From NCBI RefSeq assembly GCF_003334815.1, contig NZ_QOWO01000086.1: a DNA stretch of 3,095 nt. One strand, written 5' to 3'. Below are positions 1 through 3,095 of the stretch, piece by piece (position 1 is the first letter of the stretch; each line of letters starts with the position of its first letter). The notes beneath the pieces were generated by a model. The model saw only the letters and a program-made list of their open reading frames with translations, had not been told where the DNA came from and made no database searches. A program made the position numbers and the translations under genes. The stretch is from Escherichia coli (GTDB taxonomy: Bacteria > Pseudomonadota > Gammaproteobacteria > Enterobacterales > Enterobacteriaceae).

Positions 1-378
1 AATCGCTCCCCTGCGGCGACTCTTGTCATAAGAGTGCCGGAGCGTTTTTCCATCAATTGCAATGACGTCTTTATCATCTGAAGAATGGCAGTCACGCATC
101 CAGTTAATAAAGCACTCGTGAAATTTTGCAGGACTGATACAGGATACAACTCTGGCAATGGTATCGTGAACAGGAATACCATTTTCAAAATCACCATATT
201 GCTTCAAAAAATCGGGATGTGTTTCCCCAAAATCCTCTATATCTTCCCAGCCTTCTGCACCAGAAATAACGGCACAAATAGTCAACAGTAGAATATCCGA
301 TAACTTATGTTCCATTTTCCAGGCTTGTCTGTAATCGGGGATAATAGAAATATGTCCCATCAATTTTTTAAGTTCCAT
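1..378 (-). CDS. ISAs1-family transposase (H-repeat-associated protein), N-terminal 126 codons; the rest of the gene lies beyond the window start
   Basis: Absent from the ORF track because there is no stop in the window. ATG at 378-376 is preceded by AAGGAG (plus 385-390) with a 6-nt spacer, and the frame is open to position 1. My hand translation: [126 protein letters not shown]. This is colinear with the N-terminus of the 862..1608 ORF at about 60% identity by hand alignment. It matches my memory of E. coli H-rpt (YhhI-type) ISAs1 transposases; not searched. Confidence 0.85.
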
Positions 379-463: not shown

Positions 464-1608
464 TTAAACATAAAATGCGAATTGTTTAGTACAAAAAGTG
501 AACTTCTGATGATCTTTCCCTGTGTTTAACGCAGCCTTCTTTCTTTTCCTCTTCACCCTTAATGTCTTTGCAATCTCTTAATAAATTCAGTGCCATCTTC
601 TTTATTCCAGATATTATTTAGGCTGCGTTTCCTCTTCTTATCCGGCTGGCATCTTCATTCATTTTTACATCTAACACCCAATGAAGACTGTGCTCGATCA
701 GCCAGTGCGCTCTGATAGCATGTGCAAATTCTTTAGCATCCATATCCTTTGATGAAATATAATATCGGATGCTTACACCTTCTGCTGATTTATCTTCTTT
801 CTTCTGCCTGAATGACAATGCTACACAAAGCTTTTTTAATCCCTTCCATTCGAATTCAAAATCACAAAAGTTCAGGCGTTACGTTACTGACAATATGCAA
901 ACGTGTTTCTTTTCTTCCATGACTTATCTCCTGCGTACTAAACGAATCGCCTTTATAATTAGAAAACACATTTACAGGAAATTTTTCCTCGAATGCATGA
1001 TGTAATTTCCCCTGATTGCCTTTTACTGCCAGAAGATAATCTGCTTTTTTATCTTTGATCTTCGAAGCGATATCTTTCTGACAGCCCATAGCATCAATGG
1101 TTATCAAATTTTTCTTTAAATACAGTAGGTTAAGCAACTCTGGAATGGCTGTAATCTCATTACTTTTGGCTTCCGTTTTCACCTGCCCCAGTACAACACC
1201 ATTTTCGTTCGAGAATGCACTCACCATATGGATTGCTCCTTTTCTTTTTCCCTTATCAAAGGAGCCTCTTATGGTCTTTCCATCTATTGCTATAATTTCA
1301 CCATCAGTGATTTCATGGCACTCCTGCATCCATTCAATAAACATCTTTTCAAAGGCCAAACTGTCAATGTTACTCACAACGCGTGCAATGGTGTCATCGA
1401 CCGGAATGCCATTATCAAAATCACCATATTTCTTTAGCCATTCAAGTCTTTCATGTCCAAAATCTTCAATTTCCTGCCACTCATCGGCACCTGCAATTAC
1501 TGCACATACGGTGAGAAACAAAATAGCAGATAATTTATGTTTAACCTTTCCTTGTTGTCGTATATCAGGGGTCACTGAAATATAATCAAGCAGACTTTGA
1601 ATACTCAC
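464..1608 (-). pseudogene. ISAs1-family transposase (H-repeat-associated protein), disrupted: +1 frameshift near 861-864, in-frame TAA at 618-620, second frameshift near 555-560
   Basis: Track ORF 862..1608 (248 aa, MSIQSLLDYISVTPDIRQQGKVKHKLS...) is the N-terminal two thirds; the start is GTG at 1608 with AAGGA 6 nt upstream. After TPELL the protein continues in the +1 frame as [25 protein letters not shown]...[29 protein letters not shown] (track ORF 618..818, whose reported M is a TTG). This is interrupted by TAA at 618-620 where homologs have Glu. The same frame then reads IISGIKKMALNLLRDCKDIKG. A further frame change gives VKRKRKKAALNTGKD... and a stop at 464-466. Total span is about 381 codons, matching a full-length ISAs1 transposase of roughly 378 aa (length from memory). 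Confidence 0.8.
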
Positions 1609-1683
1609 CTGGCGTCCTTTTTTATCTTTTTAGTTATTCCAAAGGTTAAATTTTGATCACCTGTAGGCGTTAAAGCAAAGATG

Positions 1684-1709
1684 AAAATCGTGATTTACAT
1701 CACAATTTT
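1684..1709 (-). repeat. Imperfect inverted repeat / hairpin (11-nt arms, 4-nt loop); candidate weak terminator for the rhs-immunity transcript or an IS-end structure
   Basis: Plus strand reads aaaatcgtgat-ttac-atcacaatttt. On the minus-strand RNA the arms AAAAUUGUGAU / AUCACGAUUUU pair fully with one G:U wobble. It lies about 80 nt downstream of the small-ORF stop (1790) and about 75 nt upstream of the copy B transposase start. The stem is AT-rich and the U-run is inside the stem, so it is weak as an intrinsic terminator. Confidence 0.2.
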
Positions 1710-1789
1710 CATGATCTTGCCCTGCCCCGTCCCTTGCTCTCATGTCTTTCTGTATGTATTTTATATTTTTCTCTTTCTGGTGTTGTTCA

Positions 1790-1945
1790 TTATGACCATT
1801 TACCAATCCAGTCAAAAACTTCATTTTTCAAATTGTTATCATAATAATCAACATCATAATAGTCTCCATAATTAATTATTTTATAACTAGCCTTCTTGTT
1901 TTTATCACTAAAATACACCCGTTGTTTTGTAGCGCAGAACTCCAT
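1790..1945 (-). CDS. Small hypothetical protein (51 aa from ATG 1945; 62 aa if GTG 1978 is used); status uncertain, possibly a frameshifted 3' extension of the immunity gene
   Basis: Track ORF 1790..1978; the reported M at 1978 is a GTG. Internal ATG at 1945-1943 is preceded by GGAG (plus 1949-1952, 3-nt spacer). Peptide MEFCATKQRVYFSDKNKKASYKIINYGDYYDVDYYDNNLKNEVFDWIGKWS. It is AT-rich like the neighbouring immunity gene and I see no family resemblance. Confidence 0.3.
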   Translation of the reverse strand: MEFCATKQRVYFSDKNKKASYKIINYGDYYDVDYYDNNLKNEVFDWIGKWS

Positions 1946-1968
1946 ATTCTCCAGTTTACTAATGTTTT

Positions 1969-2271
1969 TTAATCGCACGCTATAAAGAATATCATTGAAA
2001 AATTAAGATTTATATCAACCACTCCACAGTGCGTCCTGTAATTATTAACCATTATACTTATAAAATGACCATTCCCTCTACTAATTTTTTGGTCATTAAT
2101 TATTTTATAAATAATATTTTTTTCAGAAAGATATATCTCAACGCTCTTTGGTGTTTTATGTCCATAAAATACGATGTCAGAATTTGAATTGTTATCAAAC
2201 CCAAGGTAAACAACAAATAAACAAAGGGTAATTAAAAAAATGACAAGTTTGCCTCTAATAATTTGAAGCAT
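1969..2271 (-). CDS. Putative Rhs immunity protein, 100 aa, with N-terminal signal-anchor / transmembrane segment
   Basis: ATG at 2271-2269 overlaps the rhs stop (TAG at 2257-2255) by 17 nt. Strong SD AAGGGAG (plus 2277-2283) with a 5-nt spacer. N-terminus MLQIIRGK + [17 protein letters not shown] is a positive n-region followed by a 17-residue hydrophobic stretch, then a polar run DNNSNSD. The gene is very AT-rich (13/60 G+C in the hand-counted sample 2101-2160). Position directly downstream of an Rhs toxin tip is the canonical immunity location. Confidence 0.6.
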
Positions 2272-3095
2272 CTGAACTCCCTTGCTTTGCTTTTATTGGA
2301 TTATCTGCTTTTATACCATCTAACCCGAAGAGTTGCCCAGTGTTATATTTTTCAATACATGCATCGCTACATTTGGCAGAAAAATCGCCACAAGCAATAC
2401 CGACAGTGTTATTTTTAAGATCCATGATTCTTTCTTTAGCTGGCTGACCTTGTCTATCCCCTGCCGCCTCATGATTTTTACCTATCACGTCAGCTATTGT
2501 TGATCCAAATGTCTTAGTCATTCGACACATCAAGTAACAATGTCTCATTGCATCGGCGGCCCCATTATGAGCTCCGCCAACAATAGCATCCATATCATAA
2601 CCGAACTGGTAAGCACTGTTAGTAATGCTGTTTGCAGCAATCAATCCAGGTACACCAGATACGGCATAAATTAGTCCACCTGATGTCATATTCTCAATCG
2701 CATCTAACCCCATTGGGTCTATCACTTGTATGGGATTCAACGGATACTGATACATATTCCATCCACCTCTCAACCCAATCGGGTCCGGGGTGATATACCG
2801 CCCCTGCAACGGATCGTAGTGCCGGTGACGGTTATAGTACAGCCCCGACTCCTCATCATGCTGCTGCCCTGGCAGACGGTACGGCTGGTGCAGGTGATGC
2901 GGGTTCTCCTCATTAAGCTGGTTGCCCCATTCATCATACTCCCCGCGCCACGCCGTATTGCCGTCTTCGCTGATGAGCGCCAGCGGCAGGCCCCGGTGGT
3001 CGCAGTGGTAAAAATGAACTTTTCGCGCCGGTGTGTATTCCGGCTCCACCTGTCTGGCCAGTTGCTCCACCGTCAGCCCGCACTGCGCAAGCCAC
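2255..3095 (-). CDS. Rhs family protein, C-terminal portion (end of Rhs core plus C-terminal toxin domain); 5' part of the gene lies beyond the window end
   Basis: Track ORF 2255..3070; the reported M at 3070 is an internal GTG and the frame stays open to 3095 (..[15 protein letters not shown]..). Contains the conserved Rhs core end [17 protein letters not shown]...YDEWGN...[56 protein letters not shown], with DPMGL at plus 2705-2719. The G+C-rich core (44/60 in sample 2941-3000) gives way to a lower-GC tip (30/60 in sample 2521-2580). Stop is TAG at 2257-2255. Confidence 0.9.
2258..2704 (-). other. Rhs C-terminal variable (toxin) domain, 149 aa, family unassigned
   Basis: Sequence after DPMGL: [149 protein letters not shown]. 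It has a His/Asp/Cys cluster [16 protein letters not shown] (plus about 2525-2569) and a second Cys cluster [13 protein letters not shown] do not recognise HNH, HExxH, deaminase (H[AC]E..PCxxC) or ART (R..STS..ExE) signatures. Confidence 0.7.

Follow-up and report, generated by a model that had tools for sequence, protein, structure and literature searches.

YdcD as a probable membrane-anchored, periplasm-facing immunity protein of the RhsE toxin, encoded by a broken or mis-sequenced gene in an Escherichia coli locus

The immunity proteins of the Tae/Tai, Tge/Tgi and Tle/Tli effector pairs reach the periplasm by means of a signal peptide, a lipobox or an anchor. A 3,095-nucleotide stretch of Escherichia coli DNA (assembly GCF_003334815.1, contig NZ_QOWO01000086.1), hereafter the window, carries the 3′ part of rhsE followed by ydcD, a gene that in our reading probably encodes the immunity protein of RhsE, namely a membrane-anchored, periplasm-facing antidote, and that is broken or mis-sequenced in this window. 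The locus shares with those pairs the VgrG-associated delivery and an immunity gene placed directly downstream of the effector; unlike them, the C-terminal tip of RhsE contains no recognisable amidase, muramidase or lipase domain, and the YdcD fold lies outside their immunity families. With the Rhs systems that have a cytosolic immunity protein it has in common the DPxGL end of the core, a variable tip and a small immunity open reading frame (ORF), both of them AT-rich, as well as orphan tips and immunity genes nearby; however, the immunity proteins of those systems lack an N-terminal hydrophobic segment, which is present in all full-length YdcD members.

A nearer described system is BteO–BtiO, a type VI secretion system (T6SS) pair of Bacteroides fragilis GA3 (PDB 9UU0 and 9UU1), in which BteO, the sole characterised member of the DUF6973 family, was described as non-enzymatic (PMC12541434). 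BteO is toxic only when it is directed to the periplasm, where its effects are elongation, blebbing and lysis, and it binds OmpA-C-like domains, which are peptidoglycan-anchoring domains of the OmpA type; the substitutions R143A, H144A, H167A, E168A, D187A and D191A each abolish its toxicity (PMC12541434). The toxin is neutralised by BtiO, which bears a cleaved signal peptide and mimics OmpA-C (PMC12541434). The RhsE locus resembles this pair in that the effector domains are homologous, with the toxicity residues conserved, the effector is T6SS cargo, and the immunity gene adjoins the effector gene and carries an N-terminal export signal, which for YdcD is a putative one. When YdcD was examined as an immunity protein of the BtiO type, no OmpA-C-like mimicry was found.

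A megablast search against the complete E. coli genomes identified the window as the K-12-type RhsE locus, with 99.9% identity. In the equivalent region of MG1655, an rhs pseudogene truncated at its 5′ end is represented by its 3′ part and is followed by ydcD, by an ISAs1 (H-repeat) pseudogene with a frameshift and by the beginning of ydcC, each of them on the window's minus strand; a global alignment of the two sequences showed two substitutions (at 163 and 1593) and one missing homopolymer base in 3095 bases. The gene ydcD is already known: it is annotated in K-12 as b1457, it defines an NCBIfam family (NF050020, “YdcD family protein”) and it has a deposited structure (PDB 8WJ5). The literature searched for YdcD, rhsE together with ydcD, 8WJ5, DUF6973 and “double-wing” contained no paper on this protein and no function for it, most of the matches to the name YdcD referring to an unrelated Bacillus subtilis gene.

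The start of ydcD is embedded in the toxin gene. Its ATG (2271-2269, minus strand) is placed 17 nt upstream of the end of the rhs TAG (2257-2255), within the last rhs codons (which encode …GSSDASNY before the stop), and the 17-nt overlap reads ATGCTTCAAATTATTAG. A Shine-Dalgarno sequence, AAGGGAG (2277..2283, minus strand), is located within the coding sequence of rhsE, 5 nt ahead of the ATG; the predicted energy of its duplex with the 3′ end of 16S rRNA is −7.9 kcal/mol, a good value, below the maximal one. The overlap and the ribosome-binding site reported in a preliminary description of this DNA are both found, the latter being good rather than maximal. Open stretches of at least 100 codons appeared in 11 of 2000 shuffles of this DNA, which has 27% guanine plus cytosine (GC). 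Along the minus-strand operon (1790..3095 in the window) the GC content falls from about 62% in the Rhs core (above 2800) to about 43% in the tip and to 27% in ydcD, a step-down of the kind that marks a displaced cassette of Rhs tip and immunity gene.

Intact ydcD is 483 nt long and codes for 160 residues in K-12 and in strain SCU-104. The protein is laid out as a hydrophobic helix at about residues 2-26, a flexible linker (27-40) and an alpha/beta domain of 120 residues; the crystallised fragment (residues 26-160, 135 residues) is deposited as “Double-wing domain of E. coli YdcD”. Distant relatives of YdcD and of the tip surfaced only through an exhaustive HMMER search and a profile search, since word-indexed protein searches with the two sequences returned almost solely E. 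coli fragments and frameshift variants. The HMMER search yielded relatives of similar length with 27-33% identity to YdcD, besides many E. coli fragments; two long matches, of 2118 and 3337 residues and made up of many stretches, were discounted as probably reflecting the composition of proteins rich in N, I, K and Y. The YdcD family is thus narrow but real. Membership was judged with the NF050020 profile, which has 164 positions and a cut-off of at least 65 bits, and which intact K-12 YdcD matches with 215 bits over positions 1-164. A Pfam search with YdcD gave no significant family, with noise only at E 0.05-0.1, and PADLOC found no match for YdcD or for the RhsE tip. The family alignment revealed eight invariant residues (C82, G83, F91, F92, C113, W155, W159 and S160). 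W-I-x-K-W-S at the C-terminus is conserved, as are the motifs ERGNGxF and C82-G83. The invariant cysteine pair C82/C113 would be compatible with a disulfide formed in the periplasm.

The assignment of ydcD as the RhsE immunity gene, proposed in the preliminary description as a candidate, gains support from the neighbourhoods of its relatives, as the position behind the same toxin domain is kept across 27-60% identity. In SCU-104, vgrG is followed by a full-length RhsE gene of 1366 codons and then by ydcD with the same 17-nt overlap; the arrangement recurs at a second locus (L003), where vgrG lies directly upstream of rhsE. These two loci are where the vgrG linkage of RhsE is seen, and they extend beyond what the window shows. 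A 64-nt probe centred on the homopolymer of ydcD was used to survey 5426 complete E. coli genomes, and the probed stretch was present in 2456 of them (about 45%); at least 80% of the window is covered in about 2429 E. coli genomes, so that nearly all of the 2456 with ydcD have the tip beside it. A YdcD variant with 60% identity is encoded directly after a tip with 82-85% identity (contig L004), and its overlap with the rhs frame is identical, the 17 nt being common to the window, K-12, SCU-104 and this variant. The linkage extends to more distant relatives on two unrelated metagenome contigs, where the preceding tips belong to DUF6973: P0088, 27% identical to YdcD, follows an RhsE-tip match (E 5e-33) with an 8-nt overlap within an Rhs array (L010), and P0084, 31% identical, follows a frameshifted RhsE-tip match (E 3e-16 and 3e-13) with a 1-nt overlap (L009). 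The 60% variant, P0088 and P0084 all pass the NF050020 cut-off.

On the contig of the 60% variant (L004, 1003..1949) the ydcD gene is followed by an orphan DUF4329 tip ORF of 215 residues and then by a 100-residue ORF, both of which overlap their upstream neighbours; in this region, displaced cassettes of Rhs tips and immunity genes form an array.

The toxin side of the locus was characterised from the 3′ end of rhsE, which occupies 2255..3095 (minus strand) in the ORF listing and in RefSeq and runs off the window; it consists of the end of the Rhs core with its DPMGL motif, the C-terminal tip and the TAG at 2257-2255. Residues 1-130 of this rhs ORF are matched by RHS (Pfam PF03527) and by RHS_core (NCBIfam TIGR03696). 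By translation and composition the tip comprises the 149 residues after DPMGL (2258..2704, minus strand), with about 43% GC against 62% in the core, and it contains a DUF6973 domain (2387..2626, minus strand; Pfam PF22322, E 1.3e-11, model positions 17-100) with the motifs RH, HE and E..MDLKNN. A glycine-rich, moderately hydrophobic stretch at the start of the tip has a Kyte-Doolittle value of 1.34, below the usual transmembrane threshold, and was not used as evidence. In its AlphaFold2 (AF2) model, which has a predicted local distance difference test (pLDDT) score of 80.7, the tip consists of helices throughout, as BteO is reported to do.

The best match of the tip among PDB sequences is BteO (9UU0); the phmmer match is weak (E 0.16) and rich in motifs. 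The aligned BteO fragment is itself a DUF6973 domain (E 3.6e-14, model positions 16-100). When the RhsE-tip subfamily was compared by hhalign with a BteO-like subfamily, whose profile was built from Xenorhabdus, Photorhabdus, Serratia and metagenomes, the two aligned over 87 columns with a probability of 94.3% and E 1e-7. The residues invariant in both subfamilies are, in tip numbering, A52, R54, H55, A71, G75, H78, E79, D95, N98, N99 and G102. By spacing and alignment, R143, H144, H167, E168, D187 and D191 of BteO correspond to R54, H55, H78, E79, E91 and D95 of the tip, so that of the residues on which BteO toxicity depends five are identical in RhsE and one is changed from D to E. The RhsE subfamily has in addition a cysteine-rich C-terminal extension in which C105, C112 and C116 are invariant. 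Rhs proteins and E. coli homologues are not mentioned in the BteO study (PMC12541434), no report of a link between the RhsE tip and BteO was found in the literature searched, and this link appears to be unreported there. The genomic contexts of a Xenorhabdus BteO-like gene and of a Salmonella Rhs orphan tip were uninformative on the topology of the immunity protein.

The preliminary description had argued, from the immunity protein, that the toxin acts outside the cytoplasm. BteO is toxic in the periplasm only and the tip is its homolog, and the logic of an exported immunity protein directed against an extracytoplasmic toxin is hence supported independently from the toxin side. RhsE and YdcD are probably a periplasmic Rhs/T6SS effector–immunity pair.

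The N-terminus of YdcD consists of MLQIIRGK followed by 17 hydrophobic residues (codons 9-25; 2197..2247, minus strand), which may be read as a signal anchor or as the h-region of a signal peptide. Hydropathy agrees with this segment as first described: the 19-residue Kyte-Doolittle maximum of the N-terminus is 2.36, the summed dG on the biological scale is about −4 kcal/mol, and the AF2 model of YdcD has a continuous helix over residues 2-26. The segment is also conserved, since a hydrophobic run of 16-22 residues, preceded by one or two K/R, was found in seven of seven full-length family members (137-165 residues). On its N-terminal side the charges are +2/−0 (R6 and K8), and the C-terminal side begins with D26 and is an acidic or polar stretch. 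From this distribution of charges we infer that the N-terminus would remain in the cytoplasm, and the domain would therefore be exposed in the periplasm.

Whether the segment is retained or removed bears on the anchoring of YdcD. A cleaved Sec signal peptide, leaving a soluble periplasmic protein, would fit the positive n-region, the hydrophobic core followed by a polar stretch, and a possible cleavage site after residue 31 (between the last two residues of S-N-S-D); moreover, a signal peptide that is cleaved off is also found in BtiO, which neutralises the homologous toxin. The family run of 16-22 residues, however, exceeds typical h-regions, a conserved small-x-small site is not seen in the family alignment, and AF2 gives one continuous helix from residue 2 to 26; cleavage is considered the less likely reading, and a membrane anchor is preferred. 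The lipoprotein alternative was rejected because no lipobox of the form [LVI][ASTVI][GAS]C is present; the sequence around C17 is I-T-L-C, with L at position −1, and C17 is unconserved in the homologues. An in silico study of enterohaemorrhagic E. coli (EHEC) had proposed as the periplasm-directed immunity protein of RhsE a 61-residue ORF with a lipoprotein signal (PMC7216683). The length of that ORF equals that of YncO, which is encoded antisense to ydcD, and not that of YdcD; as 61 residues fit the former rather than the latter, the RhsE immunity ORF may have been mis-assigned in that paper (PMC7216683).

Some observations weigh against YdcD as a membrane-anchored antidote of RhsE. In some homologues the C-terminal flank of the hydrophobic run is at least as rich in K/R as the N-terminal one (in P0029, +3 against +2), and there the positive-inside rule by itself makes a weak argument. 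An opposite orientation, with the N-terminus out and the domain facing the cytoplasm, or a role unrelated to toxins, such as that of a nucleic-acid binder similar to the “double-wing” C-terminal domain of phage T4 MotA, with a toxin that might then be cytoplasmic, draws on such flanks and on the name of the crystallised domain; set beside the charges flanking the K-12 segment, the tip linkage and the relation of the tip to BteO, it is judged improbable. A Foldseek search of the tip model against the PDB gave no match with E≤0.001, and 9UU0, which is a maltose-binding protein (MBP) fusion, was not among the 50 matches listed; the homology of tip and BteO consequently rests on sequence profiles. 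No toxin tip adjoins three of the YdcD relatives, so the neighbourhoods of the homologs agree with the preliminary description in part: the relatives described above follow DUF6973 tips, and these three do not. One of the lone genes (L008, 6001..6498), which has the top NF050020 score (230 bits), is flanked by truD and by a phosphoethanolamine-transferase-type gene (Pfam EptA_B_N/Sulfatase) within an ispDF–truD–surE–pcm–nlpD–rpoS region, and it appears to represent an orphaned immunity gene at a site of the core genome. Immunity genes standing alone, away from their toxin, are familiar in other toxin–immunity systems. Finally, rhsE of K-12-type strains lacks the N-terminus, and no vgrG is present; the pair is not an active weapon in this genome.

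In the window ydcD spans 1790..2271 (minus strand), with 482 nt instead of the 483 nt of the intact gene, and alignment with MG1655 and the RefSeq annotation identify it as a −1 frameshifted allele. The site lies after codon 91, at 1998..2002, where the plus strand has A5 in place of the common A6; on the coding strand this is T5 against T6 in MG1655, one base fewer. The neighbours are the same as in K-12 (rhsE, the ISAs1 pseudogene, ydcC and yncO), and residues 1-91 are identical to K-12 YdcD, the remainder being recoverable in the −1 frame; the window allele differs by the 1-nt deletion, which leads to a product of 100 residues. The preliminary description had taken the ORF at 1969..2271 (minus strand) as a 100-residue protein with a C-terminal domain of roughly 70 residues. 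An ATG-initiated ORF of 100 residues does exist on that strand, but it consists of YdcD residues 1-91 plus nine frameshifted residues and a stop, and its 3′ end is set by the frameshift; the natural product has 160 residues, of which 135 form the crystallised domain. The ORF end first described is a frameshift artefact, and the statements on the size of a “70-aa ectodomain” are to be discarded.

The displaced C-terminal part of YdcD is found in a 62-residue ORF (1790..1978, minus strand), which includes the invariant C113, W155, W159 and S160. NF050020 scored 118.5 bits on the 100-residue ORF, for positions 1-92 only, and 70.4 bits on the 62-residue ORF, for positions 101-164; the match being divided between two ORFs, the window holds a split member of the YdcD family. 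In the 100-residue product the correct frame stops at F91, so that five of the eight invariant residues (F92, C113, W155, W159 and S160) are lost and the eight are not united in a single polypeptide; the truncation also takes four strands and two helices, that is everything from the strand at 95-105 on, or about half of the fold.

It might be supposed that the 100-residue ORF as written is a functional, small, signal-anchored immunity protein with a 70-residue ectodomain, as it is open, is preceded by a good Shine-Dalgarno sequence and retains the hydrophobic segment, ERGNGxF and C82-G83. Nevertheless, the remaining 60 codons of ydcD can be read on in the −1 frame, where the family profile still matches them, the losses just described remove half of the crystallised fold, the A5 allele was found in at most 4 of the 2456 complete genomes that carry the stretch, and RefSeq, through the Prokaryotic Genome Annotation Pipeline (PGAP), flags ydcD as a “frameshifted” pseudogene in both of the A5 genomes inspected; this supposition is accordingly held to be very improbable. 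Programmed frameshifting at ydcD was considered and rejected, the T5 run being without supporting features and the allele rare. If the deletion is real, the ydcD allele of the window is most likely a non-functional remnant.

That the deletion is an error of homopolymer sequencing or assembly, the organism having an ordinary intact ydcD of 160 codons, is a serious possibility, although we stop short of calling it probable. It would agree with a single-base difference in an A6/T6 run within a window that otherwise has only two substitutions relative to K-12 in 3095 bases, and with the fact that two complete A5 genomes have CM-prefixed accessions labelled “whole genome shotgun sequence”, one of them having also a frameshifted rhs. 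On the other hand, the sequence taken alone fits an error and a mutation alike, and the decay of ydcD is plausible too, since strains of the K-12 type already have rhsE as a pseudogene. Many database clusters named YdcD, of 88-143 residues, are frameshift or truncation variants with 88-100% identity, which points to frequent indels or read errors in the AT-rich homopolymer tracts of ydcD.

The mode of action that we favour for the pair may be outlined as follows. YdcD would be translated from a Shine-Dalgarno sequence of its own that falls within the final codons of rhsE, with a 17-nt overlap of the two frames; the hydrophobic N-terminus would target the protein to the inner membrane with its N-terminus in the cytoplasm, and the domain would reside in the periplasm, either in tethered form or, should the segment be cut, as a free protein. 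There it may bind and block the DUF6973 tip of an RhsE delivered by the T6SS, a tip that, like BteO, would be expected to act on a target in the periplasm or the cell envelope; binding, protection and target are what we infer from the linkage and from the tip homology. In the window, the 1-nt deletion after codon 91 would truncate YdcD to 100 residues.

The remaining features of the window lie downstream of, or opposite to, ydcD. The RefSeq-annotated yncO (1690..1875, plus strand) codes for a very hydrophobic protein of 61 residues and is antisense to the last 86 nt of ydcD. A 14-bp hairpin (1681..1712, minus strand), located 78 nt past the ydcD stop, overlaps the start of yncO on the opposite strand; it is the sole terminator-like site in 1600-2700 (one observed, 0.3 expected). 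A promoter scan around ydcD returned 7 sites against 5.5 ± 2.3 in shuffles, with no excess, and an Rfam scan of the window gave no match. Two ISAs1/H-repeat transposase genes follow ydcD in tandem on the minus strand: the first (464..1608) is a frameshifted pseudogene with an internal stop, in which a 248-residue ORF (862..1608) is still open, and the second (1..378) is the start of ydcC.

The conserved residues of DUF6973 (R-H, H-E, D, N-N and G), which are maintained from Bacteroides to Enterobacteria, resemble an active site. On a bolder reading, the invariant R-H / H-E / D / N-N constellation may be a catalytic centre and not a binding surface, and in that case the DUF6973 toxins would be enzymes whose activity has so far gone undetected. 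It is also conceivable, though we put this forward tentatively, that RhsE/YdcD is the proteobacterial counterpart of the BteO pair, in which the tip would attack envelope-tethering proteins, such as the peptidoglycan-binding domains of the OmpA/Pal type, and protection would come from the tethered “double-wing” fold of YdcD, unrelated to BtiO. Through the homology of the tip, the BteO toxin family, described recently in Bacteroides, comes to include enterobacterial Rhs proteins. For ydcD, an uncharacterised “y-gene” of K-12 with a determined structure, the tie to DUF6973 and BteO provides a testable function, namely that of a periplasmic immunity protein against an envelope-targeting RhsE.
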